From NCBI GenBank assembly GCA_021790425.1, contig JAJYEA010000002.1, positions 36,807 to 100,806 on the forward strand: 64,000 nt of DNA, in the 5' to 3' direction. Below the pieces are notes generated by a model. The model saw only the letters and a list, made by a program, of their open reading frames with translations. It did no database searches and was not told where the DNA came from. The stretch is from Thermoplasmata archaeon (GTDB lineage: Archaea; Thermoplasmatota; Thermoplasmata; Lutacidiplasmatales; UBA184). Below, in pieces: positions 35,484 through 63,847 of this stretch; positions within the stretch are counted from its first letter, which is position 1; every line of letters starts with the position of its first letter. Position numbers and translations under genes: made by a program.

Positions 35484-35487
35484 GGTC

Positions 35488-37687: not shown

Positions 37688-38380
37688 TCAGCGACGCAGA
37701 ACCTCTTCCAGGAGCTCCGGGAAGGAGCGCACGATCGTACAGCCGCCACCGGCCGCGAACTCCCGCTCTCGTTCCGGGACGTTCTTCCCGGGCCAGACGA
37801 CCCCGACGAAATCCACGGAGGCGTCGCGCGCGCAGGTGAGGTCCAGGGCCCGGTCCCCGATGTAGGCCGCCCGGTGGCCCGGGACCCCCATCCGCTCGAG
37901 GACGTTCCAGAGGCTCCGGGGATCGGGCTTGCGGGGGCCCGGGGTGTTGCGGGTGCTGACCACCGGGAAGAAGCGTCGGAGCCCGGTCTGTTCGAGGGCC
38001 GCCGTCGCGAAGGGCTCACAGCTGCGGGTGAGCAGCCCGAGAGCCAGTCCGGCCCCTGCCATCTCGGCGAGCGTCTCTTCGGCGCCGGGGAGCACGTGCA
38101 CCCCCGATAGCGCTGCGAGCTCGATCCGGTCCAGCCGCTCCTCGAGCTCCTCCTCGTAGGTCCGGACCTTCTCTGGGGCCCGGGGGCCAAGCCACTCGTG
38201 GACGGCGGCCGACATCTGGTAGAGGAACCGCTTCCCCTCCAAGCTCTCCGTGGGAACTCCCAGCCCCGCGGCGATCTCCCGGGCGGCCTGATGCATCGCC
38301 GCGAAGTCCATCGGGGAGTCGATCAGCGTCCCGTCCATGTCGAAGACCAGCCCCGCGTAGCGCGCGCCGTTCCCGCCCAT
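37688..38380 (-). CDS. HAD-superfamily hydrolase (subfamily IA-like)
   Basis: LVFDMDGTLIDS (motif I) ...LLTRS... (motif II) ...K...GDRALD (motif III/IV). Start trimmed to ATG 38380. Confidence 0.7.
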   Translation of the reverse strand: MGGNGARYAGLVFDMDGTLIDSPMDFAAMHQAAREIAAGLGVPTESLEGKRFLYQMSAAVHEWLGPRAPEKVRTYEEELEERLDRIELAALSGVHVLPGAEETLAEMAGAGLALGLLTRSCEPFATAALEQTGLRRFFPVVSTRNTPGPRKPDPRSLWNVLERMGVPGHRAAYIGDRALDLTCARDASVDFVGVVWPGKNVPEREREFAAGGGCTIVRSFPELLEEVLRR

Positions 38381-38492
38381 GGCCGATACCCCCGGGTGCG
38401 TCAGCGGAGGCGAGCAGATGAGCCTTCCCGGAGGTCCGAGGAGAAGCCTCGGGCAGGCGAAGTGGCTTGCCCCCCTACGGGTAGAGCTTCCC

Positions 38493-39107
38493 CTACGGGA
38501 CGGCCTTGACGTGCACCCGCAGTCCGAGCTTGCGGTTCGCGCGGCGGGAGGGGCGCATCCGTTCGGCACCCTTACCCTTCCAGCGGAGCCCGCGTCCCTT
38601 GCGGCCGGCGCTGGTCAGGCCACGGTAGGCGCGCCCTCTCTGGGCCGGGTTCAGGATCCAGTTGATCCGGGGGTCGGCCTGGATCGAGGGGTTCGAGCGG
38701 TCCACGAGGATGACCTCGTAGAACCGGTCCTTGCCGTCCTCTCCAACCCAGTACGAGTTGAGAACTTCGAGGTTCGGGTAGTGCTTCTGGGCGCGTTCCT
38801 CGGCGATGCGCTGGATCGACTTCTGGAGCGTCATCCGGAGGATACCCTTGTGCTTGGGCCGCCGTCCGGCGATGATGTGCCGCTTGCGCTGGCCGCCACG
38901 GCGCACGCGCACCCGGCTCATGAGGTAGCCCGGCTTGGCCCTCCATCCGAGGGCGTGGGCTCGGTCCAGGCGGGTGGGGTGCTCGAGCCGGATGACGGCG
39001 GGGAGCTGGCGCCAGGTGAAGACGCGTTCCCGGCGGCGGGCCGCGGCCTCGTCGCCCAAGGTCTTCTGGAACGTCTCGGCGTACCGTTTGAACGTGGAGG
39101 TGCTCAT
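38493..39107 (-). CDS. rpl15e: Ribosomal protein L15e (eL15)
   Basis: ...HPTRLDRAHALGWRAKPGY...RVRVRRGG..., ...QRIAEERAQKHYPNLEVLNSYWVGEDG.... Confidence 0.9.
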   Translation of the reverse strand: MSTSTFKRYAETFQKTLGDEAAARRRERVFTWRQLPAVIRLEHPTRLDRAHALGWRAKPGYLMSRVRVRRGGQRKRHIIAGRRPKHKGILRMTLQKSIQRIAEERAQKHYPNLEVLNSYWVGEDGKDRFYEVILVDRSNPSIQADPRINWILNPAQRGRAYRGLTSAGRKGRGLRWKGKGAERMRPSRRANRKLGLRVHVKAVP

Positions 39108-39154
39108 GGAACTGATGCTGGAGCGGGGGGGCGAATCACGCTCGGGTTAAAACC

Positions 39155-39931
39155 TTACCTCTCCCCCCATCCGGGCGTTCCGGGGTGAAGCTCGGGCCGC
39201 CCCTCGGGCCCGAAGAGCGTGGGGGATGCGACCACCTTGGGCCGGGTCAGGCGGTCGATCGCCGACCGCAGGCTCTCGCCGGCGTCCTTCGTGATCGGCG
39301 CCCCGTGCCCGGGGAAGACCGCCTCCACCTTGAGACCGGTGAGCTTCCGGAGCGACCGCGCGGCCGCCTCCGGGTCGTAGCTCGTGGAGGGCTTGGAGAG
39401 GGCCAGTCGTCCGGACGGGCTCGTGACGAGGGCGTCGCCCGTGAAGAGCAGGCCCCGTGCCTTGTGGTAGAAGGCGACGCTTCCCGGGGTGTGGCCGGGC
39501 AGGTGGTACACGGTGAACGGGCCCACCGTGGTCCCATCCTCGAGCTTGGTGTTCACCTGGACCTTGTGCGGGTGGAAGAGGATGCGCACGAAGAGGGGCG
39601 CGACCGCGGGCGCGTGAGCCTCGATCGAGGGGGCGTCCATGCGGTGGGCGGCCACCGGCGCCTCGGAGAGCCAGCGGAGCTTCGCGGCCCCTCCGATGTG
39701 ATCGGGATGCTGGTGGGTGATCAGGATCCCCCGGATTCCCTGGGGCTTTACGCCGGCGCGCTCGAACGCCTGCAAGACGGGCCGGGCGTTGCCGGGGAAA
39801 CCGGTATCGATCAGATAGTGCCCCTCCGCTTCGTGAATGACGTAGGCGTTCGCCACGCTGTGGATCACTCCCACACTGTCCAGGACGGGGGATCCGACCA
39901 ACTTGGAGGGGGGCGAGGGGGTAGCCTGCAT
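39155..39931 (-). CDS. MBL-fold metallo-hydrolase
   Basis: ITHQHPDHIGG (HxHxDH), ...LPGHTPGS..., ...FTGD.... The start (39931 vs 39970) is uncertain. Confidence 0.7.
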   Translation of the reverse strand: MQATPSPPSKLVGSPVLDSVGVIHSVANAYVIHEAEGHYLIDTGFPGNARPVLQAFERAGVKPQGIRGILITHQHPDHIGGAAKLRWLSEAPVAAHRMDAPSIEAHAPAVAPLFVRILFHPHKVQVNTKLEDGTTVGPFTVYHLPGHTPGSVAFYHKARGLLFTGDALVTSPSGRLALSKPSTSYDPEAAARSLRKLTGLKVEAVFPGHGAPITKDAGESLRSAIDRLTRPKVVASPTLFGPEGRPELHPGTPGWGER

Positions 39932-40074
39932 CGGGACCTCTGTCGGGCCCGATGCAAGAGAGGTTTTCAACTTTCGGATGGACCGTCCGGGGGTGGGGGG
40001 GGCCGCCTTCCTTCGCGTCCCCGCCCAAAAACCGGAAGAGGGCGGATGTACTATCCCCGACCAGCAGGTCGGAG

Positions 40075-41043
40075 ATGGCTCCCATATCCCCCCGTAAGTT
40101 GGAGACCCGCAAGTTTGGGAAGACCGGACTCGAGATCACCCGCATCGGCCTGGGTACCTGGGCGATCGGGGGAGGTGGTTGGGCGTTCGGCTGGGGCCCC
40201 CAGGCGGACAAGCCCTCGGTGGAGGCGATCCACCGTTCCCTGGAGTCGGGGATCAACTGGATTGACACGGCCCCCGTCTACGGGACGGGCCACGCGGAGG
40301 AGGTCGTGGGGGGGGCCATCGCAGGGCGCTCCCCGGCCCCGTACGTGTTCACCAAGGTCTCGCTCCTGTGGGACTCCCGGCGGAGGGTCCGGTCCTCGTT
40401 GAAGGCGGAGTCAATCCGCCAAGAGGCCGATGCCAGTCGACGGCGCCTCGGTCTCGACGTGCTCGACCTCCTTCAGGTGCATTGGCCCAATCCCGAGGAG
40501 GACATCGAGGAGGGATGGCGCGCGCTCGCCGGGCTCAAGGACGAGGGCAAGGTGCGCCACATCGGCGTCTCGAACTTCTCCGTGGAGCAGATGGAACGGG
40601 CGGCGGCGATCGCCCCCGTGGAGACCCTCCAGCCTCCCTACTCCCTAGTCCACCCCGAGGTCCAGGACGAGATCCTCCCCTACGCGAAGCAGCACGGGAT
40701 CGGGGTGATCGTCTACTCCCCCATGGCATCGGGACTGCTCGGCGGCACGATGACGGCGGAGCGGGTCCAGGCCATGGCTCCCGACGACTGGCGGCGCAAG
40801 GACCCCGAGTTCAAGGGCGCCCGGCTCCAGCGCAACCTCGCCTTGGCGGCGTTGCTCGCGGAGATCGGAAAGGAGCACCACGCCTCCGCCGGAGAGGTGG
40901 CCATCGCCTGGACCCTCCGGAACCCGGCCGTGACGGCCGCCATCGTGGGCGCGCGGAGCGCGCCGCAGGTCGACGGCTTCCTCCACGCGAGCGAGGTCCG
41001 GTTGACCCAGACCGAGGTGGACCGGCTGGTCTCCTTTCCGTAG
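40075..41043 (+). CDS. Aldo/keto reductase family oxidoreductase
   Basis: ...LGTWAIGG..., ...IDTAPVYG..., ...IGVSNFS...; (alpha/beta)8 AKR motifs. Start trimmed to MAPISPRK. Confidence 0.8.
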   Translation: MAPISPRKLETRKFGKTGLEITRIGLGTWAIGGGGWAFGWGPQADKPSVEAIHRSLESGINWIDTAPVYGTGHAEEVVGGAIAGRSPAPYVFTKVSLLWDSRRRVRSSLKAESIRQEADASRRRLGLDVLDLLQVHWPNPEEDIEEGWRALAGLKDEGKVRHIGVSNFSVEQMERAAAIAPVETLQPPYSLVHPEVQDEILPYAKQHGIGVIVYSPMASGLLGGTMTAERVQAMAPDDWRRKDPEFKGARLQRNLALAALLAEIGKEHHASAGEVAIAWTLRNPAVTAAIVGARSAPQVDGFLHASEVRLTQTEVDRLVSFP

Positions 41044-41120
41044 CGACCTCGGTCGCACCTGGCGGCCCACCCCCGAAAAGGACAATAAGCGGGCTCCCTA
41101 GAGGGGACCCGGTATCTCCG

Positions 41121-43019
41121 GTGAAGCTCCTCTTCGTCCACGCAGACCACCTGGCCTTCGAAGCGCGAAAGCCCGCCATCAAGTCCCCCCCTCCGCTCAC
41201 GCCCGAGACCGCCCGGGGCGAGGCCAAGGAGGCCCTGGTGGTCTTCTTCTCGGTCGAGGAGCAGGACGCCACGGGAGGGGATGAGCTCGCCCGGAAGGCC
41301 ATCGCCGAGGTGGCGGACGTCCTCTCGCAGGTCAAGGCGGAGCGGGTCGTCCTCTATCCCTACGCCCACCTCTCGAACCGTCTCGCGAAACCCCCGGTGG
41401 CGCAGGACATGGGCGAACGCCTCCGGAACGCGGCCTCCAGCCTCGGGGTGCCGGTGTCCTCGGCCCCCTTCGGGTACTACAAGGCCTTCACGCTCCAGGC
41501 GAAGGGGCACCCGCTCTCCGAACTCTCGCGAACGGTCTCCCTGGACTCCCCGGCAGCTCCCGCCCCCCCGGCCGGGGCTCCCAAGTCGGTCCAGAAGGAG
41601 AGCGAGGCGCTCACCCAGGAGAAGAAGCTGGTGAGCTCCTGGCACATCCTCACCCCGGATGGTACGCTCCACAAGGCCTCCGAGTTCGACACGTCCCAGG
41701 ACCCCGGGTTCCGTGCCTTCTTCGCCTACGAGACCGAAGGGAAGCGGGCGGTGGGGGAGGAGCCTCCCCACGTGCGGTTGATGCGGTCGATGGAGCTCGT
41801 CGACTACGAGCCCGGCTCGGATGCGGGCAACTTCCGGTGGTACCCGAAGGGCCAGCTGGTCAAGCGGCTCCTCGAGGAGAAGGTGTCGAGCGTCGTCAGC
41901 CAGCTCGGCGGGATGCGGGTCGAGACCCCCATCATGTACGACTACGAGCACCCGGCGCTGAAGAAGTATCTCAACCGGTTCCCCGCGCGGCAGTACGTCC
42001 TGCAGTCGGACGACAAGGACTTCTTCCTCCGCTTCGCCGCCTGCTTCGGACAGTACCTCATCTTCCACGACATGGTGATCGGCGAGCGCGATCTCCCCGC
42101 CCGCCTCTACGAGCTGACGCACTACTCCTTCCGCCGGGAGCAGTCGGGTGAGCTCTCCGGGCTCCGGCGTCTCCGGACGTTCACCATGCCGGACATGCAC
42201 ACCCTCGTCTCGGACGTGGAGGGGGCGAAGGCCGAGTACCTTCGCCAGTTCGAGGCATGCAAGCAATGGGTGGACGACCTCGGGATGCAGTTCCACGTGG
42301 CCATCCGGTTCGTGCGTTCCTTCTTCGACGAGAACCGGGAGTTCGCCACCTCGCTCGCGCGCATCATCGGGCGACCCATCCTGCTCGAGCTGTGGGAGGA
42401 CCGTTTCTTCTACTTCGTCATGAAGGCCGAGTTCCATCCCCTCGACACCCAGGGACGGGCCGCGGCGCTCGGCACGGTCCAGATCGACGTGGAGAACGCG
42501 GAGCGCTTCGAGATCCACTACTCGGCGAGCGACGGGACGCGGAAGACCCCGATGCTCCTCCATGCCAGCATCTCGGGGGCGATCGAACGCAACGTCTACG
42601 CCCTGCTCGAGGACCAGGCGGGGAGGATGGCGAAGGGCGCGAAGGCGCAGTGGCCCTTCTGGCTGGCTCCCACCCAGGTCCGTTTCCTTCCGGTGAGCGA
42701 CCCGCACAACGCCGGGGCGGAGAAGCTGATGAACGAGCTGGTCGCCCGCACCGGCGTCCGGGTGGACCTCGACGACCGCGTCGAGGGGATCGGGCGCAAG
42801 ATCCGCGACGCGGAGCGGGAGTGGGTCCCGCTGGTCTGCGTCTTCGGGGAGAAGGAGGAGGCGAGCGGCAAGCTCGCCGTCCGGTCGCGGGATGGGCCCC
42901 AGGTGGAGATGTCCCTCGACGAGCTCTGCGCGGCCGTCACCCAGCGGCAGGGACACAACCCGATGTTGCCGCTGGCCCTCTCCGCTCGCCTCTCGCAGCG
43001 CCCCATCTTTCGCGGGTGA
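41121..43019 (+). CDS. thrS: Threonyl-tRNA synthetase, archaeal type, with an N-terminal D-aminoacyl-tRNA-deacylase-like editing domain (GTG start)
   Basis: (M)KLLFVHADHLAFEARK editing-domain N-terminus, class II core motifs (...FRREQSGELSGLRRLRTFTMPDMH...), and an anticodon-binding C-terminus. There is no in-frame ATG between the upstream gene and this GTG. Confidence 0.8.
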   Translation: MKLLFVHADHLAFEARKPAIKSPPPLTPETARGEAKEALVVFFSVEEQDATGGDELARKAIAEVADVLSQVKAERVVLYPYAHLSNRLAKPPVAQDMGERLRNAASSLGVPVSSAPFGYYKAFTLQAKGHPLSELSRTVSLDSPAAPAPPAGAPKSVQKESEALTQEKKLVSSWHILTPDGTLHKASEFDTSQDPGFRAFFAYETEGKRAVGEEPPHVRLMRSMELVDYEPGSDAGNFRWYPKGQLVKRLLEEKVSSVVSQLGGMRVETPIMYDYEHPALKKYLNRFPARQYVLQSDDKDFFLRFAACFGQYLIFHDMVIGERDLPARLYELTHYSFRREQSGELSGLRRLRTFTMPDMHTLVSDVEGAKAEYLRQFEACKQWVDDLGMQFHVAIRFVRSFFDENREFATSLARIIGRPILLELWEDRFFYFVMKAEFHPLDTQGRAAALGTVQIDVENAERFEIHYSASDGTRKTPMLLHASISGAIERNVYALLEDQAGRMAKGAKAQWPFWLAPTQVRFLPVSDPHNAGAEKLMNELVARTGVRVDLDDRVEGIGRKIRDAEREWVPLVCVFGEKEEASGKLAVRSRDGPQVEMSLDELCAAVTQRQGHNPMLPLALSARLSQRPIFRG

Positions 43020-51438: not shown

Positions 51439-54234
51439 ATGTCACGATTGGGCGTAGCACAGCGTGCGGAACCGACCGACGACGGCGCGACCGCCAGACC
51501 GCGGACCTGGAGCAAGCGGGCCCTCCGGCTGACCCCTGTGGTCCTGACCCTGCTGCTCGCCGCCATCTTCGTGTCCCCCAGTGGGAGCCTCCTCTCCTCC
51601 GGGGCCCTTCCTGGTGCCGCCGACCACCCGGCCGTTCCCGCCACCTTCCTCGGCTACAATGTGACGTTCCGGCAGACGGGTCTCCCGTTCGGCACCAACT
51701 GGAGCGTGACGCTCAACGGGAGCACGCTCTACTCCACCTACGGTCGCCTCCGTTTCCCGGAGATCCCCAATGGGACCTACCCCTTCACGGTGGTAAACGC
51801 TTCTAACGGATACGTTCCCACCCCGAACAACGGCACGGTCACGGTTGCGGGGGTTAGTCCGCCGAACGTCAACATCGCATTCGCTGCTCCGCCGGGTGTC
51901 TACTCGGCGACCTTCACCCAGACCGGCCTGCCCTTCGGCACCGCCTGGGGTGTGACCTTCAACGGAACGTACTACGTCTCGAACCGCTTCGGTAACGTCG
52001 TGGTCAGCCCGGTGAGGAATGGAAGCTATCTTTGGAACACCTCTGTGTTCGCGGGTCTCTATCCTGTCCCTCCCAGCGGGACCATGAACATCAGCGCGGC
52101 GAGCAACACCACCAACGTCGTGTTCGGACCCCTGCCTGGCCACTACACCGTAGCGTTCGCCGAGACCGGGCTGCCGTTCGGTGTCACGTGGTGGGTCACG
52201 TTCAACGGTACGGTTTACTCTGGGAACACCTTCACGGGGATCACCATCAACAGTGTGGTCAACGGGACGTACTCGTGGAATGTCTCGTATACCGGCTATT
52301 CCGCGGTGCCTTCCACAGGCCCGATGGTCATCAACGGGACGGGGAACAACACGAACATCGTCTTCACCCCCATCCCCGGGGAGTACGCGGTCGCATTCAC
52401 AGAGGGCGGGCTTCCCTTCGGGGTGACCTGGTGGGTCACCTTCAACACCACCGTCTACTCCGGGAACACCTTCACGGGGATCACCATCAACGGCGTGGTC
52501 AACGGCTCGTACTCCTGGAACGTCTCGTACGCGGGGTACACTGCGACCCCCGCCAACGCCACGATGTCCATCAACGGGACGGGCACCACCACGGCGATCA
52601 CCTTCACCGCCATACCCGGAGAGTACCTTGCCTCGTTTACCGAGGGCGGTCTACCCGGGGGCACCACCTGGGCCGTCGTCTTCAACGGGACGACGCACTC
52701 CGCCACCTCGCCCGGAGCGGTGCAGATCACCGGAGTCAAGAACGGATCCTACGCGTGGAGCGCCGTCCCCGTCCCGGGCTACTCGGCTGCCCCCGCGAGC
52801 GGGACCATGAACATCACGGGAGTGGACAACACCACGAGGATCACCTTCACCGCGCTCCTTCCCGGACAGTACTCCGTCGTCTTCGGTGAGATCGGTCTTC
52901 CGAGCGGGACCGCCTGGTCCGTGACGTTCAACGGCACGACCCTGTCGTCGAGCGCACCCACCTCGATGATGTTCACCTCCGGCAACGGCAACTGGGGATT
53001 CACCGTCGGGAGCGTCACGGGATACTCGGCCTCCCCTGCCTCCGGGACCGTCGCGGTCAGCGGCAAGACGGCGTGGCAGAACATCACCTTCTCCTCGGGC
53101 CCGCCCACCTACTCCGCCACGTTCACGGAGAAGAACCTCGCCACCGGCACGAACTGGTCGGTCACCCTCCAGAGCACGACACTGTTCTCGACGACCGCCA
53201 GCATCGTCTTCTCGGGGCTCGTGGACCAGACCTACTCCTTCACCGTGGCCTCCTTGGGACGGTGGGCTCCCACGCCCGCCTCGGGGTCGCTCACCATCAA
53301 CGGCGCCAACGTGCAGCAGGCGGTGAACTTCACCCTGGGACCGATGTCGTACAGCGTCACCTTCGTGCCCAAGGGGTTGCCGGCCGCCCAGAGCTGGTCG
53401 CTGAGCCTCAACAAGGTCAGCCAGACCTCGGCCAACGCGGGCAACATCGTGTTCTCCGAGGCGAACGGGACGTTCCCCTTCGTCGTGACGTCGATCACCG
53501 GATTCGTCCTCTCGCCCGCCAGCGGCAACGTGACGGTCAATGGGGCCAACCTCCAGCAGAACATCACGGCGGATCGGGCCTACGGCGTGACCTTCACTGA
53601 GAGCGGCCTGCCCGCAGGGGGAAGCTGGACCGTCGTCCTGAACGGGGTCTCCACGCCTTCCACCGCGACAACGGCCGTCTTCTCCATGGTGAACGGGACG
53701 TACGACTTCACCGTCGCCGGCCCCTCGGGCTACACGGCCACACCCAGCTCCGGCAAGGTCACGGTGAACGGGGCTTCGGCCACTCAGGCGGTCAGCTTCG
53801 CGAAGTCGAACTCCGGCACGACACAGAAGTCGACCAACCCCCTCGCCTCGGGCTGGGGATTGTTCGCGGTCATTGCCGTGGTCGTGATCTTGGTGGTCGT
53901 CTTGCTCGCCCTGCTCCTGTTGCGGCGGCGGAAGTCCGGCTCGTCGGGACCCTCCGGGCCCTTCACCGAGGACGCCGCGGCCGGTGCCGCGGTGGCGGGC
54001 AGTGCGTCCGAGTCTCCGCCCTCGGCTTCCGACGACAACCCCCCCGCTCCGGAGGAATCCAGCTCCGAGACGCCTGCGGCCGAGAGCTCGGACTCCTCCG
54101 CCACTCCCTCCGAGGGTGAATCCTCGAGCGAGCCCTCCTCCTCCGGCGACTCCCCTGCCTCCTCGGAACCCAGTTCCGGAGAGGGCCAGTCCTCGGCCGA
54201 CTCGTCGGAGGACTTCCACGAGTCCAGCCCCTAG
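51439..54234 (+). CDS. Large surface (S-layer-like) glycoprotein candidate: signal/TM N-terminus, nine ~80-aa tandem domains, C-terminal TM helix, and a ~95-aa Ser/Glu/Pro-rich cytoplasmic tail
   Basis: Repeats of Y.V.F.E.GLP.GT.W.VTFNGT...NG.Y.W.V...GY...P.SG...I.G with very many N-x-S/T sequons. TM AVIAVVVILVVVLLALLLL plus RRRK. Tail SESPPSASDDNPPAPEESSSETPAAESSDSS.... Confidence 0.8.
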   Translation: MSRLGVAQRAEPTDDGATARPRTWSKRALRLTPVVLTLLLAAIFVSPSGSLLSSGALPGAADHPAVPATFLGYNVTFRQTGLPFGTNWSVTLNGSTLYSTYGRLRFPEIPNGTYPFTVVNASNGYVPTPNNGTVTVAGVSPPNVNIAFAAPPGVYSATFTQTGLPFGTAWGVTFNGTYYVSNRFGNVVVSPVRNGSYLWNTSVFAGLYPVPPSGTMNISAASNTTNVVFGPLPGHYTVAFAETGLPFGVTWWVTFNGTVYSGNTFTGITINSVVNGTYSWNVSYTGYSAVPSTGPMVINGTGNNTNIVFTPIPGEYAVAFTEGGLPFGVTWWVTFNTTVYSGNTFTGITINGVVNGSYSWNVSYAGYTATPANATMSINGTGTTTAITFTAIPGEYLASFTEGGLPGGTTWAVVFNGTTHSATSPGAVQITGVKNGSYAWSAVPVPGYSAAPASGTMNITGVDNTTRITFTALLPGQYSVVFGEIGLPSGTAWSVTFNGTTLSSSAPTSMMFTSGNGNWGFTVGSVTGYSASPASGTVAVSGKTAWQNITFSSGPPTYSATFTEKNLATGTNWSVTLQSTTLFSTTASIVFSGLVDQTYSFTVASLGRWAPTPASGSLTINGANVQQAVNFTLGPMSYSVTFVPKGLPAAQSWSLSLNKVSQTSANAGNIVFSEANGTFPFVVTSITGFVLSPASGNVTVNGANLQQNITADRAYGVTFTESGLPAGGSWTVVLNGVSTPSTATTAVFSMVNGTYDFTVAGPSGYTATPSSGKVTVNGASATQAVSFAKSNSGTTQKSTNPLASGWGLFAVIAVVVILVVVLLALLLLRRRKSGSSGPSGPFTEDAAAGAAVAGSASESPPSASDDNPPAPEESSSETPAAESSDSSATPSEGESSSEPSSSGDSPASSEPSSGEGQSSADSSEDFHESSP
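51637..53780 (+). repeat. Nine tandem ~240-bp coding repeats. The exact 30-mer gggaacaccttcacggggatcaccatcaac occurs at 52222-52251 and again at 52462-52491.
   Basis: Direct DNA identity with a 240-bp period, plus protein-level periodicity. Confidence 0.8.
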
Positions 54235-55674: not shown

Positions 55675-56053
55675 CGTGCTCCGGGGCGGTGCCGTTAGCC
55701 GTCGAGAGGGTTGGGAATCGACCTCTGCTCGGCCCGGATCCCCATCCAGCATGGGCAGTCCCCACCGTCGTTTGCTGGCATGACTAGGAGAAGGTTTTCC
55801 CGGTCAATAGCCTTTCGGAGGAAGGGGTCAAAGCCTCGGTGCAGAGCGCCGCCGCAACCCTTGCGATCCGGTCGCTTCGGCTGGTGGTATCGTAGGCGAG
55901 GGAATGTCTGCCGCGAGTCCGCCCGGCACCCGGCCCGCTCTCGCTCCCCAGGGTCTGCTTGGGCCTGCGGTTCGGCGGATCCGGGGCAGCGTAGGGACTC
56001 GGCCCCACCCGGTTGGAAGGGGGGGAGGGGGGGTCCCTGACCTGTTCGGTACA

Positions 56054-56070
56054 AGTTATATGTGCTAATT
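56054..56070 (+). promoter_or_regulatory. AT-rich box (agttatatgtgctaatt) 42-58 bp upstream of the 56112 ATG
   Basis: The only AT island at the 3-prime end of a 437-bp GC-rich intergenic region. Confidence 0.25.
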
Positions 56071-56111
56071 CCCAATCCTTCCCGTCGGGACAGAGGCCCC
56101 GGGGGGGAAAC

Positions 56112-57536
56112 ATGTATTCCTACGCGAACAAGAGGATCAAGATCGACGAAGAGTCACCGCGCATCCGGACGGGGGACTTCGGAGAGATCCTGCATTCCTA
56201 CACCCCTGAACAGGCGATCCTCGAGGCCAAGCGATGCAATCAGTGCCTCATCCCGTTCTGCGCCGAGGCCTGTCCGATCGCCCAGGACGCCCGGGGGTAC
56301 GTGGGGTTGATCTCGGAGGGCAAGTTCGACGAGGCCGCCCAGATGATCCTGCAGGCGAACCCGCTCGCCACCAGCCTCTGCAAGTCCTGCTACCACTACT
56401 GTGAGACCGCCTGCATCCGCGGCAACCGCGCCCTTCCGGTGGCCATCCGCCACCTGAAGCGCTCCGCGCTGGAGTACGGTCGATCGGACCTTTCCTACGC
56501 GCCGCAGGCCCCGCTCCACCTCAAGATCGCGGTCATCGGAGGGGGCCCCGCGGGCATCATGGCGGCCTGGGAACTGGGCATCCGCGGCTACACGGTGACG
56601 GTCTTCGAGCAGGATGAGCTCCTCGGTGGCCAGATGGGAGCCATCCCGCGCTACCGCCTCGACGGGTCCGAGCTCGACACCGACGTCGCCCGCCTGCGCA
56701 ACCTCGACGTGACCTTCCTGCGGGGACAGAAATCGGGGGTCGACTTCACCCCCGAAACGCTGCTCCAGGATGGCTACGAGGCCGTCTACGTGGCCATCGG
56801 GACGAGCGCCCACCGCGACCTCAAGGTCCCGGGGGAGGAGCTCCCGGGGGTCTATCCCGCTCTCGAGTTCCTCAAGGACACCAACCGCGGGCTCAACGTA
56901 CCGGTGGGCAAGCGGGTGGTGGTCATCGGCGGAGGTGACGTTGCGATGGATGCGGCGCGGACCGCCAAGCGGCTCACGCAAGGCGGCGAGGTGATCGTCG
57001 CGTACCGGCGGAGCCGCGAGGAGATGCCGGCCGAGAAGGAGGAGGTTCACGAGACGGAGACGGAGGAGGTCCCCTTCCTCTTCCTCCACGCCCCCCTCCG
57101 GATCATCGGGAAGGGCCATGTCGAGGGGATCGTCATGCAGAAGCTCAAGCTGGGTCCGCCGGACGCTTCCGGCCGCCGGGCCCCCGTGCCCATCCCGGGC
57201 TCGGAGGTCACCATCGCCTGCGACGCGGTCATCTCCTCGGTCGGGCAGATCCCGGACCTCGCCGGGTTCTCCAAGAAGTTCGATTTCACGGTCGGTTCCC
57301 AGGGTGCGCCCGAGGGAAAGGGAACCGGATTCGCGACCGGGGTCGAGGGAGTCTTCGCCTCCGGAGGCAAGTCGATCGTGTTCGCCATGGCCGCGGCGAG
57401 CCGCGCCGCGGAGCAGATCGACCTCTACGTGAGCCAGAAGCATGGCCTCAGCCCCCACCCACGCCCGGACCCCTTCGGGGGCCCCCAGCCGGTGCCCCGT
57501 CCCTCGGGCTTCGAGGGCGCGAGCTGGCACTTCTAG
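56112..57536 (+). CDS. Glutamate synthase small-subunit-like / PreT-like FAD-NAD(P)H oxidoreductase with N-terminal [4Fe-4S]-binding domain
   Basis: N-terminal Cys clusters (CNQC...C...C, CKSCYHYCETAC). Two dinucleotide folds IAVIGGGPAG and VVVIGGGDVAMD. Start trimmed to MYSYANK. Confidence 0.75.
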   Translation: MYSYANKRIKIDEESPRIRTGDFGEILHSYTPEQAILEAKRCNQCLIPFCAEACPIAQDARGYVGLISEGKFDEAAQMILQANPLATSLCKSCYHYCETACIRGNRALPVAIRHLKRSALEYGRSDLSYAPQAPLHLKIAVIGGGPAGIMAAWELGIRGYTVTVFEQDELLGGQMGAIPRYRLDGSELDTDVARLRNLDVTFLRGQKSGVDFTPETLLQDGYEAVYVAIGTSAHRDLKVPGEELPGVYPALEFLKDTNRGLNVPVGKRVVVIGGGDVAMDAARTAKRLTQGGEVIVAYRRSREEMPAEKEEVHETETEEVPFLFLHAPLRIIGKGHVEGIVMQKLKLGPPDASGRRAPVPIPGSEVTIACDAVISSVGQIPDLAGFSKKFDFTVGSQGAPEGKGTGFATGVEGVFASGGKSIVFAMAAASRAAEQIDLYVSQKHGLSPHPRPDPFGGPQPVPRPSGFEGASWHF

Positions 57537-57560: not shown

Positions 57561-58886
57561 TCAGCCCTCGAGCTGCGCGAGTGCGGCGTCCAGGACCGCG
57601 ATCCCGCGGTCGATCTCTTCCCGGGTGACGATCAGCGGGGGGGCGATGACGAGGTGGCTCACCCACCCCATCACGTAGATCCCGCGCTCGAGTGCGAAAC
57701 GGGTGATGTTGTCGATCGCGAGGGGTCGGCCCCGGAACTTGTCCTCCTCGGTGTTGAGCGGCTCGCGGGTGGTCCGGTCGCGGACGAGCTCGAGGGCCCA
57801 GAAGAGTCCCATCCCGCGGACCTCGCCCACGGAGGGATGCTTCGCTTGGAGGTCGCGGAGCTTCTGCCCAAGATACTCTCCCATCTCCCGGGACCTCTTC
57901 ATCAGATCCAGCCGCCGGTACTCGGCGACCGCGGCGGGGACGGCCGCCAGGCTCACGGGGTGGGCCTCGTAGGTGTGGCCGTGGGGGAAGTAGTGCTCCT
58001 CGAAGTGCTCCGCGATGGCCCGGCTGGTGGCCGTGATGCCCAGGGGGGTGTAGGCGGCGGTCGAGCCCTTGGCGGTGGTCAGTATGTCCGGCACGACGCC
58101 CCAGTGATTGGCGGCGAACCACTCCCCCGTGCGCCCCCAGCCCGTCATGACCTCGTCGAGGATCAGGAGCACGCCGTGCTTCGCGGTCACTTCGCGCAAC
58201 CGGGGCAGGTAGCCGTCGGGCGGCACGATCACGCCGTTGGTGCCGACGATGGGCTCGACGATCACCGCCGCGACGTCCGACTCGTGCGCGATCATGTACT
58301 CGATGTAGTCGGCGCAGGCGAGGTCGCAGGCGGGATAGGTCTGCTTGAGGGGACAGCGATAGCAATAGGCGTCAGGCGCGAAGATGACCCCCTCCGCCTT
58401 GCTGGAACCCTCGGCGGGCCAGCGCCGGAAATCCCCCGTGGCGGCGATCGAGCCCGCGGTGGACCCGTGGTAGCTCCGATACCGGGAGATGATCTTGCGC
58501 TTTCCCGTGTACGCCCGTGCAATCTTGAAGGCGGCCTCGTTCGCCTCCGTCCCCGAAGTGGAGTAGAAGAACTTGTCCAGCCCGGGTGGCATCACCCCGA
58601 GCAGGGCCCGTGTCGCCTCGGCCCGGACGGCCAGGGTGAACGACGGGTTCAGGTAGGGGAGGCGTCGGACCTGCTCTGCAACGGCGTCCGCCACCGCCCG
58701 GTTGCTGTGGCCGAGGTTGGAACAGACGAGCTGAGAGGAGAAATCGAGATAGTCTTTCCCCGCGGCATCGGTGAAGGTGCATCCCTCGGCCCGGACGATC
58801 TCGAGCGGGGTCCAGCCCTTCTGTTTGCGCCAGGTGCCGTAGGTGTTCTTGCGGGTGATCTCAACAGTGTCGTTTGCGGGGTTCAT
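57561..58886 (-). CDS. Class III (omega/acetylornithine-type) PLP-dependent aminotransferase
   Basis: ...GSTAGS..., DEVMTGWGRTGEWFA (PLP-Lys region ...TTAKG...), ...YSTSGTEANEAA.... The start ATG at 58886 overlaps the upstream small ORF stop (ATGA). Confidence 0.85.
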   Translation of the reverse strand: MNPANDTVEITRKNTYGTWRKQKGWTPLEIVRAEGCTFTDAAGKDYLDFSSQLVCSNLGHSNRAVADAVAEQVRRLPYLNPSFTLAVRAEATRALLGVMPPGLDKFFYSTSGTEANEAAFKIARAYTGKRKIISRYRSYHGSTAGSIAATGDFRRWPAEGSSKAEGVIFAPDAYCYRCPLKQTYPACDLACADYIEYMIAHESDVAAVIVEPIVGTNGVIVPPDGYLPRLREVTAKHGVLLILDEVMTGWGRTGEWFAANHWGVVPDILTTAKGSTAAYTPLGITATSRAIAEHFEEHYFPHGHTYEAHPVSLAAVPAAVAEYRRLDLMKRSREMGEYLGQKLRDLQAKHPSVGEVRGMGLFWALELVRDRTTREPLNTEEDKFRGRPLAIDNITRFALERGIYVMGWVSHLVIAPPLIVTREEIDRGIAVLDAALAQLEG

Positions 58887-59197
58887 GGCTGCCCGCGCCC
58901 GACACCTCCTTTGACTATGACCATTTCGAAGTGACCATCCTCGCGGACGTCCGAGTCGATGCGGTGTCCCCTGCGCTCCGCCCAGGCCCGGACATCGATA
59001 CGGCTGGGGACGTCCGCCACCCAGGCCCGGACACGAGACCCGTTCGGCATGGGCCCCAGGACGGTCTCGAGAACTGCCAAGACCCCCTTGCACTCCTTCT
59101 TCGTGCCGTCGATCAGGCGGAGGGGTGCTTCGCCCGCACCCTCGGCGGGCCCCGGTTCACGCAGCTTTGGCGGTTCCGCGGGCCTTCGAGAAGACAT
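58883..59197 (-). CDS. TusA-like (SirA/YedF fold) small protein with a variant Cys motif. Start uncertain.
   Basis: ...PLRLIDGTKKECKGVLAVLETVLGPMPNGSRVRAWVADVPSRIDVRAWAERRGHRIDSDVREDGHFEMVIVKGG closely parallels E. coli TusA (...LRCPEPV...[45 protein letters not shown]). The stop overlaps the aminotransferase ATG. A start at ATG 59197 would overlap the mfnB 3-prime end by 41 nt; the longer start at 59308 is also open. Confidence 0.4.
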   Translation of the reverse strand: MSSRRPAEPPKLREPGPAEGAGEAPLRLIDGTKKECKGVLAVLETVLGPMPNGSRVRAWVADVPSRIDVRAWAERRGHRIDSDVREDGHFEMVIVKGGVGRGQP

Positions 59198-59918
59198 CGA
59201 TCTCTCCGCTGAGGCGTTGCTCGAGGGCCTGCTTGATCCGCTCGACCGCGGGCGCTGCCACCTTGCCGCCGTACCGGTCCCCGTTGGTGCAGACCGCACC
59301 GCGGACACCGACGATATCCGGGTTGATGCGGGCCAGGGCGTCCATGTCGGACATCTTGAGATGGCCGGAGAGGGCGGTGCTCATGCCCGCCTCCTTGCCT
59401 TCCAGCACGAGGGACTTCAGGGTGGGCTCGTCGATGAAATCGAACAGGTTCCGTCCGTCCTTCGTGAGGGTGTCGATGAGGACGCCGTCGCTCTTGCTCT
59501 CCTTCCCGAGCTTGATCACGAGCTTCGGGTCGATGCCGCCGGGGAAGAGGACGCTGTCCGCGAACGTGGCCGCGATGAGCTTGGTCTGCGAGCCTTCGAG
59601 TGCCCGCCGGCTCTCCTTGAGGATGTCGAGCGCCATCCGGTAGTCCGACTGCACGAAGCCCACCTTGACGGAGGTCGCCTTCAGCATGGCGGCTCCGTAG
59701 ACGGCCATCGCCACGGTGCCCGGCTGGTTCGGAACGACACCCAGCGTCACGCTGACATGGATCTTCTTAGGGAATGCCTTGCGGACCTCACGAACGACCG
59801 GGGGAAAGTTCGACCCCACGAGCGCTTCCTGCAGGTTTTTGACATCGACAATGTCCGCACGCCCCTTGACGGCTTCTCGGGCCTCGGCCAGCTCCTGGAC
59901 GCTCACCATCAGCATCAT
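59157..59918 (-). CDS. mfnB: (5-formylfuran-3-yl)methyl phosphate synthase MfnB (DUF556; 4-HFC-P synthase of methanofuran biosynthesis)
   Basis: The catalytic residues known from MfnB align exactly: ADIVDVKNL (Asp25, Lys27), TSVKVGF (Schiff-base Lys85), and NPDIVGVRGAVC near the C-terminus. Confidence 0.8.
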   Translation of the reverse strand: MMLMVSVQELAEAREAVKGRADIVDVKNLQEALVGSNFPPVVREVRKAFPKKIHVSVTLGVVPNQPGTVAMAVYGAAMLKATSVKVGFVQSDYRMALDILKESRRALEGSQTKLIAATFADSVLFPGGIDPKLVIKLGKESKSDGVLIDTLTKDGRNLFDFIDEPTLKSLVLEGKEAGMSTALSGHLKMSDMDALARINPDIVGVRGAVCTNGDRYGGKVAAPAVERIKQALEQRLSGEIDVFSKARGTAKAA

Positions 59919-60072
59919 ACCCGGCGACCTTGGGAGTTCACGGTAGCTTATCTGTATAAAGCTTTGGGAGACCGTGCCTCTTCACCCTGAAAACGGTGGG
60001 CAAAACCGCGTGCGGGAGAAGCCCTCCGGGCGGTCATTTTCGCACAGCGTTTCCCCCTCGGATGGGGACGAA

Positions 60073-60128: not shown

Positions 60129-63100
60129 CTACTCGGAGTAGCGGAGGGCCTCGGCCGGAGGGAAACGGGAGGCGCGGTAGGAGGGACCCCCCGTCGCGAC
60201 CAGCGTGAGCGCGTAGCTGAGTCCCACGATCAGCGCGAGGTTCTCCCAGGGGATGGCGAACGTGAAGAAGCCCCCGGCGACCTGGGAGATGTCGTAGGAG
60301 AGCAAGAGGCCGAGGAGCACGCCGATACCGATCCCAAGGAGCGCGAGGAAACTGTACTCCATCAGGAAAGCGGCCAGGACCTGGCTCCGCCGGAAACCCA
60401 TGGCCCGGATCATCCCGATCTCGCTCCGACGTTCGACGATCGCCCGCAGGGAGAGGATCCCGATCGCCGCGATCCCCACGATGAGCCCCAGGGCCACGAA
60501 GATCTCCAGGAGGTCGAGGAAGGCAAGGAGGAACTGGAGACCCGAGCTGAAGACCTGCTGGAAGTCGAGGAGCTGCAGCCCGTAGGGATAGAAGGCCCGC
60601 TTGAGGTCGTAGATCACCTGCTGCGGATTCGCGCTGGACTTCGCGGTGATGAGAAAGAGGGAGTCCTGGGTCGAGTGGAGGGTGGAGGTCATGGTGGTGG
60701 GATTGAGCAGGATGACGGAGAGGACCGTCTCGGCGAGAACTCCGATGACCTGCACGCTGGCCGTCGCATTCCGCACGCCCAGCACGGAAATGTTCAGGGT
60801 GTCCCCGGGGGTGATCGCGGAGTGCTGCGGTCCGAAGCTGAATCCCGAGGCCCCGTAGTCCCCGGAAACCACCGCCACGCCCGGGTCGGTCTCGAGCTTC
60901 TGCCAGATCTCACCGGCGGACATCCCGTCGAGCGTCGCGCTGAAGTTGTAGTGGTTCGAGGTGTAGAAGTCCTCGTTCGCGGGGACCCCGGAGGGGGCGG
61001 CCGCGATCTTGGATTGGAAGTAGCTCGGTCCTCCCGGGGACCCGACGGAGATGGAGGCCAACGCGGAGGCGAAGGGGACGGCGGTCTCGATCTCGGAGGA
61101 TAGGGTGGAGTTGTTCTGGATGTCCCCCATGAAATCCGGGATCGGCGTGGAGGTGGTCCCCGCCATGGTGTACCCTCCCGACTGGGAAGTGACCTGGCTG
61201 TTGACGTTCACCGCGATCCCGTTGCCGATCGAGGCGATCACGACGATGGTGAAGAGGACCATCGCGAAGATCGAGAGCGTCATCGCCGTCCGGAAGGGCT
61301 TGTGCGCAGGGTAGGAGAAGGCGACCATCACCACCGGGACGCGCTTGGGTCGCCGGCCGAGGATGCGGCTCAGGGCGCGCATCACGAGATCCGCGTTGAA
61401 CAGGTAGACCAGGATGGCCCCGAGGATGAGGAAGATGCCCTCGAGGAAGAGGATGAAGATGGACCCCGGGTGGTCGGTGCCGAAGAGCCAGTTGCGGAGG
61501 GAGAGATCCCCCCAGAAGAGCAGGAACGCGGCCCCCACCGCCGTCAGCGCGTATCGGCTCCGAACGAACGCGGTGGCGATCAGGCCGGCCCCGAGGATGA
61601 CGAACGAGGACCCGACGAGCACCACCGAGATGTCCACGGAATCGGGGAGCCCGAGCCGGACCAAGAGCAGCCCGAGGAGTACCACGCCCGCCCCGAAGAG
61701 GGCGATCTTGCGGTACGACTTCCGAGTGAGCGGGGGCTCCGGGAGGCTCCGGATGGCCCGGACGATGTTCAACCGGGAAACGTAGGTCACCGTCGCGATC
61801 ACCGTGGCGAGCGTCAGCAGGAACCCCGTGATGTACGCGGTCAGGAGGGACGACGGGAGCACGGTGAACGAGTCGTACACGGCCTGGGAGGAAGCCCCCG
61901 GGGCGACCGTGCTCACCAGTACTTCCACCAAGAGGAAGGCCATCCCCACCCCGATGAAGGTCCCAAGGAGCGCGGACCCCATCGAGTAGGCGAGGCCCTC
62001 GAAGTAGTAGGACTTGAGGAGCTGGCGGCGGGTCATGCCGATCGCCCGTGCCACCCCCATCTGCCCGCGCCGCTCCTCCGAGAGGAGGACGAAGATGCCG
62101 ACCACGAGAATGCTCCCCGAGACGATGGAGAAGAGCCCGATCACGAGGAAGAGCGTCGTGAGTTGCGAGGAGGTCTTCGCGGCCGAGCTCACGTCCGCGC
62201 CCAGGACGTCGTGGGCGGTGATGCCGGCGGGAAGCATCCCGGCCGGGAAGGAATCGAGGATCCCGGGCAGGCTCTCATTGATCTCCTTCCAGACCTCGGA
62301 GGTGTGCGCGATTCCGCCGCTCGCCCCGCCCACGTTGGTCACGGCGACGTAGTTGATCGCGCCGGGCGTGCCGAGGAGGAACTGGGCGTTGGCAATCGTC
62401 ACGAAGACATTGCCCTGCCCGTTGTCCTGGAAGCCGCCGCGGCCGTCGGCTTGGACGATCCCGAGGACGGTGACGTTGAGGCTCCGCTCGTTCGGCCCGG
62501 TGAGCGTGAGGTGGTCCCCGGTGTGCGCGTCGAGTTCCTGCGCGGACGTGGGATTGAGGAGTACCTTGCCGGCCAGGGGGCCCGGGAGGCTCTTCCCTCC
62601 CGTGGTGGTGAACGGACCGAGCGCCAGGCTCGCGTTCGCATCGGTCCCCACCAGGTTCATCCCCGTTTGGGGGACACCGCTCTCCCGATCCATGCCGGCG
62701 GCCGCACCGGCCGCCAACAAGAGCGGACTCACCCCTTGGACGCCGGGCTGGCCCGTGAGCGAACGGTTGATGTCGGAGTACAGCGAGTAGGGGAACGGGG
62801 AGTACCCCTGGATCCCCTGGGCATAGATCGCCTCGTGGACGTTCCCATCCGAGATGTAAGCGAAGTGGGTCACGAGCGTCCCGACGGTATCCCCCACCAC
62901 CAGACTCGAGGAGATGATCGCGGTGCCCACGAGCAGGCCCAAGAGCAGCACCATCGTGCGCCGCCGCCCGCGCACGAAGTTCCGGAACCCGATCTTCATC
63001 GTGACCGGGTCCCTCCAGGCGAGGAAGAGCGAGCCGACCAGGACCGCGATCAGGAGGAGGATCAGGAGCCCTGTGGGGCTCGAGAGGAGCGACCCAAGCC

Positions 63101-63191
63101 CGTGGAGATCGAAACCGAAGCCCGCGCGCTTCCCCGCACCCGTCAGGGAGAGATCCACGTCCCATCCCTCATCTTGAGCACCCGGTCGCAT
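60129..63191 (-). CDS. ABC transporter permease with two FtsX-like (MacB-type) modules and large extracytoplasmic domains (1020 aa)
   Basis: Two 4-TM FtsX modules separated by long soluble regions. 49-nt overlap with the upstream ATPase gene. Confidence 0.75.
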
Positions 63192-63847
63192 GAGCGGGAG
63201 ACCTCCGCGTCGTGCGTCACGACGATGAAGGTCTGATGGTGCTTCTCATTCAGCGAGCGGAGGAGGTCCATCACCTGCTTGGAGTTCTCCGCATCGAGAT
63301 TGCCGGTGGGCTCGTCGGCCCAGACGATCGCGGGCTCGCTCACGAGCGCCCGGGCGAGCGTGACCCGCTGCTGTTGGCCCCCGGAGAGCGCCAACGGGCG
63401 GAACCCTTCCTTTCCCCGAAGGCCGAGCTCCTCCAGCCAGTGCATGGCGCTCTCTCGCGCCTGCTTGGGGGGGATGCCCGACACTAGGAGCGGCAGTTCC
63501 ACGTTCTCCACCGCGCTCAGGACGGGTAGGAGGTTGTACGACTGGAAGACGAATCCCATCCGCCGCGCTCGGTACTCGCTCTTCTTGTTGTCCGACATGG
63601 CGTGGATGTCGGTGCCTTCCACGGTCACCGTTCCCTTGGTGACGTCGTCCAGCCCGGAGAAGCAGTTGAGGAAGGTCGTCTTGCCGCAGCCGGAGGGTCC
63701 CATGATGGCCACCATCTCCCCCTCGCGAATCTCGACATCGATTCCCCGGAGGGCCTCGACCGGCCCTGCCTCGGACTCGTAGATCTTCCAGACATCCGTG
63801 CCTTGGACGATGACTTCCCCGGGCATGTGGTGAGATGGCAAGGGCAT
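63143..63847 (-). CDS. ABC transporter ATP-binding protein (MacB/LolD-type)
   Basis: GPSGCGKTT (Walker A), [15 protein letters not shown] (signature), [11 protein letters not shown] (Walker B), VTHD (H-loop). Confidence 0.85.

Follow-up and report, generated by a model that had tools for sequence, protein, structure and literature searches.

The enzyme MfnB (MJ1099 of M. jannaschii; PF04476; PDB 4RC1 and 4U9P) has so far served as an indicator of methanofuran biosynthesis, and annotation pipelines name the genes of its family in that way. The aldehyde made by this 4-HFC-P synthase is converted to an aminomethyl group by MfnC (MJ0684), a 4-HFC-P:alanine aminotransferase that belongs to the class I/II enzymes of the aspartate aminotransferase family (PF00155). 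Three other described groups of proteins are related to the genes discussed below: TusA, SirA and YeeD (TsuB) (PF01206; PDB 3LVJ, 3HZ7 and 8K1R), the pyruvate-dependent class I aldolases of the DHDPS/NAL superfamily (PF00701, including DapA, NanA, KDG aldolase and YagE), and Toa (taurine:2-oxoglutarate aminotransferase, PDB 6JIX) with related omega-transaminases. We compared these systems with a locus from a Thermoplasmata archaeon, located in a window of 64 kb (the whole stretch of DNA that was analysed).

Gene order and the MfnB-like and TusA-like proteins

The locus consists of three genes in a row on the reverse strand: a gene for an MfnB-like protein (59157..59918, 253 aa; a class I aldolase-type TIM barrel of PF04476, the 4-HFC-P synthase family or UPF0264), a small ORF with a predicted TusA fold (58883..59197, 104 aa) and a gene for a class III aminotransferase (57561..58886, 441 aa; a PLP enzyme of fold-type I, omega-type, PF00202). 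This order, with the ATG of the aminotransferase gene and the TGA of the small ORF sharing an ATGA overlap, is exactly as given in the preliminary description. The start of the small ORF, which had been treated there as provisional, is the ATG at 59197 according to public gene callers as well as our own reading (stop at 58885-58883), so that its 5' part overlaps the end of the MfnB-like gene by 41 nt; an identical 104-aa gene has been called in public assemblies. Upstream of the MfnB-like gene we read from the sequence an archaeal TATA-box-like hexamer (TTTATA, 59955..59960, reverse strand), preceded by an A-rich BRE-like element (CCAAAGC) and located 37 nt from the ATG, which is probably the promoter of the three-gene unit.

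The MfnB-like protein scored 197.8 bits against PF04476 (gathering threshold 22.4) and aligned over its full length with MJ1099 (PDB 4RC1; 163 bits, phmmer). The residues Asp25, Lys27 and Lys85, on which the family assignment had been based before, are indeed identical in this alignment, as are D149 (Asp151 of MJ1099), K153 (Lys155) and the GDR loop with the equivalent of Arg217, so that the fold, the family, the Schiff-base lysine (Lys27), the other catalytic residues and the arginine of the capping loop are shared with the methanogen enzyme. The roles of these residues in MJ1099 have been described (PMC11365854, and Wang et al. 2015 cited therein), and they are invariant in 16 members of the subfamily to which the protein belongs. 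Since all of them are kept, a furan aldehyde like 4-HFC-P is a likely intermediate. On the other hand, all NCBIfam equivalog cut-offs for (5-formylfuran-3-yl)methyl phosphate synthase were missed (best model NF002573, 210 bits vs a cut-off of 341; NF002575, 189 bits vs 304), and the same activity as that of MfnB is therefore not guaranteed. With its homologues in Thermoplasmata, Marsarchaeota and Dehalococcoidia the protein shares 62-85% identity, and it falls in a separate subfamily that is highly conserved and occurs in non-methanogens. Unlike MfnB proper, the members of this subfamily always have a TusA-like partner, encoded beside them or fused to them, are nearly always accompanied by a DHDPS-like protein (see below) and, in the loci examined, are never clustered with mfnC, mfnD, mfnE or mfnF.

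For the small ORF, a position-by-position likeness to E. coli TusA had been proposed. The likeness in fold was borne out by an AlphaFold (AF2) model (pLDDT 82.7), of which the top Foldseek match was E. coli TusA (3LVJ_C; TM 0.83, rmsd 1.6 A) and in which Cys36 is predicted to lie at the N-terminus of helix 1 (helix 36-47), within the two-layer alpha/beta sandwich that is typical of TusA, SirA and YeeD (TsuB). The agreement position by position was overstated, the structure-based identity being only about 14%, and the score against Pfam TusA stayed below the gathering score (25.0 vs 28.6 bits, covering profile positions 3-70 of 70), while no match was found in NCBIfam. The family is narrow (22 representatives at E<=1e-3 among 1.84 billion) and carries the motif D-G-x4-C-[KAT]-G in place of the CPxP of TusA; in the window the motif reads ECKG, as had been recognised earlier. 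Its cysteine, which is invariant in 86 distinct sequences, is at the position of the TusA persulfide. The partner of the protein is an aldolase-type enzyme and not IscS, TusBCD, DsrE or YeeE, as for TusA and its relatives, and no cysteine desulfurase or rhodanese was found linked to the gene. Given this lack of a linked sulfur donor, the missing CPxP and the Pfam score below threshold, a role as sulfur carrier is tentative.

A conserved trio with a DHDPS-like aldolase

We assessed 165 loci, 86 from genomes (80 of these being GTDB genome loci) and 79 assessable ones from metagenomes, in Thermoplasmata, Marsarchaeota, 'Micrarchaeota' and Dehalococcoidia/SAR202. In every one of them (86/86 and 79/79) the MfnB-like gene is directly followed by a TusA-like gene or joined to it in a fusion, and the TusA-like ORF is therefore no chance ORF. 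A third gene, encoding a DHDPS-like aldolase, adjoins the pair in 81 of the 86 genome loci and 67 of 80 metagenome loci and is often fused to it. Besides two-domain MfnB+TusA fusions (P0114 and L060) there are triple fusions of DHDPS, MfnB and TusA domains of about 700 aa, frequent in SAR202 and represented by at least 120 protein clusters (676-776 aa, without a fourth domain). One example of such a protein is P0263 (699 aa), and closed SAR202 chromosomes such as OZ244811.1 and OZ242299.1 also encode the fusion. Genomes of at least 555 GTDB species contain a member of the MfnB-like subfamily, as do hundreds of metagenome contigs. On the source contig of the window the DHDPS-like orthologue (68% identical to an archaeal representative) is located about 8 kb upstream, just beyond the window, which is why this third partner was missed in the preliminary description.

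No conserved neighbour was found beyond the trio, neither by sequence clustering nor by Pfam counting: no Pfam family was enriched directly beside the module, the most frequent ones being counted at most 4 times among 135 neighbours in archaea and 9 times among 89 in bacteria, and all were housekeeping families. Likewise, the window itself consists of archaeal housekeeping genes (Pfam scans of about 45 likely genes). Genes for UbiA/UbiD, pheA and spermidine synthase near the module are shared between loci of the same subclade only. The conserved unit is thus formed by the MfnB-like, TusA-like and DHDPS-like genes, and the aminotransferase gene of the window is a local add-on. In the literature searched we found neither a description of the trio, nor a report on MfnB and TusA together, nor 4-HFC-P outside the methanofuran/methylofuran field; one literature match to 'DUF556' in fact concerned DUF5565.

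The DHDPS-like protein (PF00701, 105 bits) shares with the DHDPS/NAL superfamily the Schiff-base Lys161 and Tyr133, both invariant in 80 sequences. Unlike DapA, it lacks Arg138 (Gln in 80/80 sequences), Thr44/Thr45 (replaced by [N/G]M, with Met at position 45 in 80/80) and Tyr107 (M, I, F or L), and in SAR202 it often forms one polypeptide with the MfnB-like and TusA-like domains. The family has invariant motifs of its own (W[NG]MGEFW, YNSPQF and FANTSDWRFD) and a divergent C-terminal third, and its members are 55-74% identical across Archaea and Bacteria, all three proteins of the trio being unusually well conserved between these two domains. No NCBIfam equivalog cut-off was reached (e.g. TIGR00674 for dapA, 85 bits vs a cut-off of 206), and by these features the third partner is a divergent Schiff-base aldolase of the DHDPS/NAL family and not DapA. 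Genes for aspartate kinase and aspartate-semialdehyde dehydrogenase were found a few kb off the module in the loci L003 and L005 and in about 11 loci of bacteria, which could suggest that the gene is dapA after all and that the MfnB-like and TusA-like proteins are auxiliary to the synthesis of lysine and the aspartate family. We regard this as very improbable: apart from the failed dapA model and the substitutions at positions 44, 45 and 107, the arginine that binds the carboxylate of aspartate semialdehyde (ASA) is absent, and aspartate kinase was counted in only 2 of 135 nearest neighbours, with no enrichment of it or of asd near the module; a link with lysine or ASA was thus rejected. An arylidene-pyruvate hydratase-aldolase of the NahE type, which would suit a furan aldehyde, was considered as well and set aside, as DapA and NanA were at the top of the PDB profile search and no hydratase-aldolase was among the 60 matches listed of 136.

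The class III aminotransferase

The aminotransferase has PF00202 as its sole Pfam match (class III, 298.9 bits) and narrowly missed the cut-off of the NCBIfam subfamily model PRK06062 ('hypothetical protein'; 445 vs 472 bits). Its closest solved relative is Toa (PDB 6JIX; 275 bits, full length), to which the PLP-lysine motif TTAKG and the aspartate motif LDEVMTG align; its orthologues are named taurine--2-oxoglutarate transaminase by JGI. It is not a homologue of MfnC in the family sense, the latter being a class I/II enzyme of PF00155, although it would carry out the same conversion of an aldehyde to an aminomethyl group if its substrate is a furan aldehyde. The order MfnB-TusA-aminotransferase was found in five contigs only (the window, L087, L091, L092 and L093, with 72-100% identity of MfnB), where the last gene overlaps the TusA-like gene by 4 nt in three cases and follows it after a gap of 24-25 nt in the other two. 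None of the 86 genome loci has the aminotransferase beside the pair, and the single instance among the 80 metagenome loci is again the L093 contig. At the same time, its family, which consists of omega-transaminases of the taurine:2-oxoglutarate type, is broad. Members with 63-73% identity occur in Sorangium, Bathyarchaeia, Caldarchaeum and other groups, in contexts as unrelated as a solitary gene in Sorangium and a position beside an aldehyde dehydrogenase gene in Conexivisphaerales.

These observations bear on the idea, put forward in the preliminary description, that the locus makes the head group of methanofuran or a methylofuran-like compound, with the MfnB-like enzyme forming 4-HFC-P, the class III aminotransferase replacing MfnC to yield F1-P and the TusA-like protein serving as an accessory. 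The conserved catalytic residues of MfnB and the tight operon, which with its ATGA overlap recurs among the five contigs, are in line with this idea, and so is the fact that omega-transaminases aminate furfurals in biocatalysis. Moreover, in methylotrophic bacteria the transaminase that corresponds to MfnC has still to be identified (PMC8141765), so that non-orthologous MfnCs are to be expected somewhere. The rarity of the aminotransferase next to the pair and the breadth of its omega-transaminase family speak against a replacement of MfnC, as does the near-universal presence of TusA-like and DHDPS-like partners that have no role in methanofuran synthesis. As stated before on the basis of the sequence, the window holds no other mfn or methanogenesis gene: Pfam scans of its likely genes detected none of mfnA/C/D/E/F, fwd, ftr, mch, mer and mcr, and other methanofuran or H4MPT genes were absent also from the 6 kb beyond it and from the genes next to the module in about 70 related loci. 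A gene of PF00155 that lies beyond the window, 5.5 kb upstream, was considered as MfnC and rejected, as it is presumably Kbl (2-amino-3-ketobutyrate CoA ligase), judging from its sequence and its position beside a zinc-ADH-family gene that we take, from its sequence, to be threonine dehydrogenase. SAR202 and methanofuran were not found together in the literature searched, and the paper on Lutacidiplasmatales genomes makes no mention of methanofuran or methanopterin. Taken together, synthesis of a methanofuran-like head group appears improbable, even though genes linked to H4MPT or methanofuran have been attributed to some Thermoplasmatales and Chloroflexi in an opinion paper (PMC5020050), which counts against an explanation outside methanofuran. 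The other option raised earlier, that the furan pathway is one other than that to canonical methanofuran, agrees with the observations, with the TusA-like and DHDPS-like proteins as partners that fall outside methanofuran biosynthesis.

The same observations raise the question whether the aminotransferase is related to the module at all. It could be an unrelated passenger, namely a general transaminase for omega-amino acids, taurine or beta-alanine, which is merely co-transcribed and arrived downstream of the pair after the DHDPS-like gene had been displaced. The enzyme is absent from most loci with the trio, the neighbourhoods of which are otherwise random housekeeping genes, its best PDB match and its JGI label both point to taurine, and since the family is conserved to the same extent everywhere, nothing in the sequence marks the operon-linked copies as specialised. 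Nevertheless, the gene order has been kept in five contigs over 72-100% identity of MfnB and is more persistent than usual for a chance neighbour, which makes a functional link to the module plausible within the sublineage of the window. We therefore consider a passenger possible but rather unlikely.

Proposed chemistry and its implications

The explanation that we prefer, and to which we give about an even chance, is that two genes of the window belong to a conserved, self-contained and uncharacterised three-gene module, the aminotransferase being a lineage-specific addition, and that the product is something other than canonical methanofuran. In this module, the Schiff-base TIM barrel of the MfnB type would most likely condense two molecules of glyceraldehyde-3-phosphate to 4-HFC-P or another phosphorylated furan aldehyde much like it, given that all catalytic and phosphate-binding residues of 4-HFC-P synthase are kept. 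The TusA-fold protein would probably serve this enzyme as donor or acceptor of a sulfur atom, or of an intermediate bound to a thiol, and the DHDPS-like aldolase would probably couple pyruvate or another 2-oxo acid to the aldehyde. The outcome would be a metabolite or cofactor, probably with a housekeeping function, of aerobic Thermoplasmata, Marsarchaeota and SAR202. In the close relatives of the window, the omega-transaminase placed in the operon may turn an aldehyde or ketone of the pathway into an amine; this chemistry, MfnC-like but performed by a non-homologous enzyme, is the least certain step. Routes to PLP, quinolinate, aromatic amino acids (DKFP/ADH), the thiazole of thiamine and cysteine (via 3-mercaptopyruvate) were considered for the module and rejected, because their carbon skeletons do not fit or because genomic support is lacking.

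A more specific and distinctly doubtful proposal is that the trio makes a novel small molecule or cofactor that combines a triose-derived, furan-type ring with sulfur. For instance, a persulfide or thiolate on the cysteine of the TusA-like protein might trap the Schiff-base intermediate, an electrophile, on the MfnB-type enzyme; the resulting thio-substituted furan, or thiophene ring, might then be extended with pyruvate by the DHDPS-like aldolase. If true, a sulfur-furan compound would be made by SAR202, a bacterial group that ranks among the most abundant in the deep ocean, as well as by aerobic Thermoplasmata and Marsarchaeota.

With respect to annotation, it is important that a sister subfamily of MfnB occurs in organisms without known use of methanofuran, bound to two partners that are superfluous for methanofuran. 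An 'mfnB' in a metagenome-assembled genome should therefore be taken with caution as evidence for C1 metabolism linked to H4MPT or methanofuran. The fusion of the three activities in a single polypeptide in SAR202 opens the question of the product to a direct in vitro test. The conservation of the module, its fusions and the housekeeping genes around it are signs of an important metabolite or cofactor that has gone unrecognised in SAR202 and in archaea of soil and acid habitats.

The three-gene locus and its MfnB-like protein

With a G+C content of about 68%, the window is archaeal in character, encoding topoisomerase VI A/B, the exosome proteins Rrp4/Rrp41/Rrp42, NOG1, L15e and an archaeal-type ThrRS. 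Three genes follow each other on its minus strand: an MfnB-like gene (59918..59157, 253 aa; PF04476, 197.8 bits), a small TusA-like ORF (104 aa; start ATG at 59197 by public gene calls and our own reading, thus overlapping the end of mfnB by 41 nt) and a class III aminotransferase gene (58886..57561, 441 aa; PF00202, 298.9 bits), the ATG of which forms an ATGA overlap with the TGA of the small ORF. A TTTATA box precedes the first ATG, that of the MfnB-like gene, by 37 nt. The sequence, the family scores and public gene calls all confirmed this arrangement as laid out in the preliminary description, and its statement that the window holds no other mfn or methanogenesis genes held as well: Pfam scans of about 45 likely genes revealed neither mfnA/C/D/E/F nor genes for methanogenesis.

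The MfnB-like protein aligned with the solved MfnB of M. jannaschii (4RC1; 163 bits) over the full catalytic set, i.e. Asp25, Lys27, Lys85, Asp151, Lys155 and the capping-loop Arg (for the roles of these residues see PMC11365854), and missed all NCBIfam MfnB equivalog cut-offs (best score 210 vs a cut-off of 341). The best 120 database matches were 64-100% identical to it, and the named ones among them were MAGs of Thermoplasmata, Marsarchaeota and Thermoprotei. Scanning GTDB with each species represented by a single genome yielded at least 555 MfnB-like loci, the best 80 of which were 69-80% identical in Thermoplasmata, Marsarchaeota and 'Micrarchaeota' and 62-67% identical in Dehalococcoidia/SAR202 bacteria; a metagenome scan added a further 533. 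Judged by these comparisons and by a mean column identity of 74% in the alignment, the protein belongs to a separate, unusually conserved subfamily with relatives other than the methanogen MfnBs. A role of the locus in canonical methanofuran synthesis seems to us improbable.

Elsewhere in the window, a protein of 931 aa (51439-54234, plus strand), for which the public gene calls give no Pfam match, consists of some ten repeats of about 85 residues, very rich in N-x-S/T sequons, followed by a C-terminal transmembrane helix and an acidic tail rich in Ser, Glu and Pro; these features resemble those of archaeal surface proteins with N-glycosylation. One stop-to-stop frame of 812 aa (24007-26442, minus strand) combines a sugar/MFS transporter domain with a C-terminal PhoU_div (DUF47) domain, an unusual pairing. 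The product of 2619-5639 (minus strand), in which a GNAT acetyltransferase is joined with CoA-binding, succinyl-CoA-ligase-like and ATP-grasp_5 domains, has the architecture of a Pat-type protein acetyltransferase / ADP-forming acyl-CoA synthetase.

Association with TusA-like and DHDPS-like proteins

By tblastn, all 86 loci carry a homologue of the TusA-like gene immediately after the MfnB-like gene and in the same orientation, as do 78 of 80 metagenome loci; of the other two, one is on a contig that stops 129 bp past mfnB and one has the TusA domain fused in frame. The Pfam TusA match of the small protein (25.0 bits) lies below the gathering score of 28.6 while covering profile positions 3-70 of 70. 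Its AlphaFold model (pLDDT 82.7) was closest to E. coli TusA (3LVJ_C; TM 0.83, rmsd 1.6 A) and places Cys36 at the N-terminus of helix 1; with an identity of only ~14%, the earlier claim that it follows E. coli TusA position by position was overstated. The cysteine is invariant in 86 distinct sequences (motif D-[GAS]-x4-C-[KAT]-G). The family is narrow, a phmmer search returning 22 proteins at E<=1e-3 among 1.84 billion representatives.

The pair is adjoined by a divergent DHDPS-family protein of ~327 aa in 81 of 86 genome loci and in 67 of 80 metagenome loci, most of the other metagenome loci being cut by contig ends. Lys161 and Tyr133 are kept in 80 of 80 sequences compared; Gln stands in place of Arg138, Met in place of Thr45, and Met, Ile or Phe in place of Tyr107. 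These replacements, together with a score of 85 bits on the dapA model TIGR00674 (cut-off 206), rule out DapA; a profile search of the PDB with the family gave only generic DapA and NanA matches (64-90 bits). The preliminary description could not include this gene because it lies beyond the window end: the orthologue, which shares 68% identity with the archaeal representative, is likewise encoded on the minus strand, at 870-1997 of contig L088 (equivalent to window ~67.9-69.0 kb), ~8 kb upstream of the MfnB-like gene. The window locus was also found on the 165.6-kb contig ERZ27233562 k141_715775 and the 96.5-kb GCA_027340385.1 DAHWRD010000071.1. Between the two genes are putative kbl and tdh genes and then those of a MacB-type ABC transporter, the latter filling window 60129-63847. 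On contig L092 the DHDPS-like gene is on the other strand, 3.4 kb downstream of the aminotransferase gene and 4.8 kb beyond the TusA-like gene. It was not found within the available flanks of the pair in the Marsarchaeota-type loci L003/L004/L013, L097, L098 and L101, where the pair is followed by an 82-aa ORF and the gene for a rhomboid protease.

The order is MfnB, TusA, DHDPS in archaea and DHDPS, MfnB, TusA in Dehalococcoidia. MfnB+TusA fusions occur in an archaeon (P0114) and in SAR202 (L060, with the DHDPS-like gene and the fusion at 8994-9977 and 10001-10972), and all three parts form one ORF of ~700 aa on L072, also of Dehalococcoidia/SAR202 (8924-11023, plus strand; Pfam DHDPS + 4HFCP_synth + TusA). 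Such triple fusions make up at least 120 protein clusters (676-776 aa), none with a fourth domain, and source databases name them solely by their three COG parts. Sequence clustering revealed no conserved neighbour beyond the trio and Pfam counts of the nearest genes only housekeeping functions (at most 4/135 around archaeal and 9/89 around bacterial modules); the module is self-contained.

The aminotransferase as a lineage-specific addition

MfnC is a class I/II aminotransferase, whereas the enzyme of the window is of class III and not an MfnC homologue. The class and the ATGA overlap given with the proposal that it takes the place of MfnC were confirmed, and the gene order recurs in five contigs: besides the window, the gene follows the pair in L087 and L091 (MfnB identity to the window 85% and 77%; 4-nt overlap with TusA) and in L092 and L093 (72% and 75%; gaps of 24 and 25 nt). 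Based on this identity, and for L092/L093 also on gene order shared with the window, we take these four contigs, all from metagenome assemblies, to be from Thermoplasmata. The replacement itself fared less well: of the 86 loci examined that have a TusA-like gene (80 of them GTDB genome loci), none had the aminotransferase gene next to the pair, and of 80 metagenome loci only L102, the L093 contig again, had it after the pair. The family, labelled taurine--2-oxoglutarate transaminase by JGI, is broad and evenly conserved (63-73% identity in Sorangium, Gemmatimonadota, Planctomycetota, Bathyarchaeia, Caldarchaeum and Conexivisphaerales), and its genes are elsewhere solitary or beside an aldehyde dehydrogenase gene; among proteins of solved structure, Toa (6JIX) gave the best match (275 bits). 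Since the pair usually lacks it and the family occurs in other contexts, the aminotransferase is a lineage-specific addition to the operon rather than one of the components that define the system. That it has been kept there, its start codon overlapping the preceding stop, over a range of 72-100% MfnB identity speaks for some functional tie, while the breadth of the family would equally suit a mere passenger, which we consider rather unlikely and which is compatible with a module of the other genes. The MfnC-equivalent transaminase of methylotrophs is still unidentified (PMC8141765), so non-orthologous solutions are conceivable in principle.

A GltD-like Fe-S flavoprotein gene (Fer4_20 + Pyr_redox_2; 56013-57536, plus strand) is convergent with the aminotransferase gene, with 24 bp between the stop codons. 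In L087 the same gene is found downstream too, but separated by two additional genes, and it is thus probably not a member of the unit. The amidohydrolase, HAD, L15e, metallo-beta-lactamase and ThrRS block (34236-43016) is syntenic with L092 1-7190 and L093 1-7193. There it lies directly upstream of the operon, whereas in the window other genes occupy ~16 kb between ThrRS and the operon, indicating rearrangement of the surroundings within the lineage.

A possible function of the module

Both barrels, MfnB-like and DHDPS-like, retain their Schiff-base lysines. If the trio acts as an enzyme unit, to which we give an even chance, the MfnB-like enzyme would convert triose phosphate to 4-HFC-P or a close analogue, the DHDPS-like enzyme would add or remove a pyruvate-type unit at an aldehyde and the TusA-like cysteine would carry sulfur or a thiol-bound intermediate; in close relatives of the window organism the omega-transaminase may aminate a pathway carbonyl. 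In the literature searched, MfnB and TusA are not treated together, nor are SAR202 and methanofuran, and 4-HFC-P is not treated outside the methanofuran/methylofuran field; the paper on the Lutacidiplasmatales genomes makes no mention of methanofuran or methanopterin. The component families are known; what is new is their obligatory combination, its phyletic spread and its conservation.
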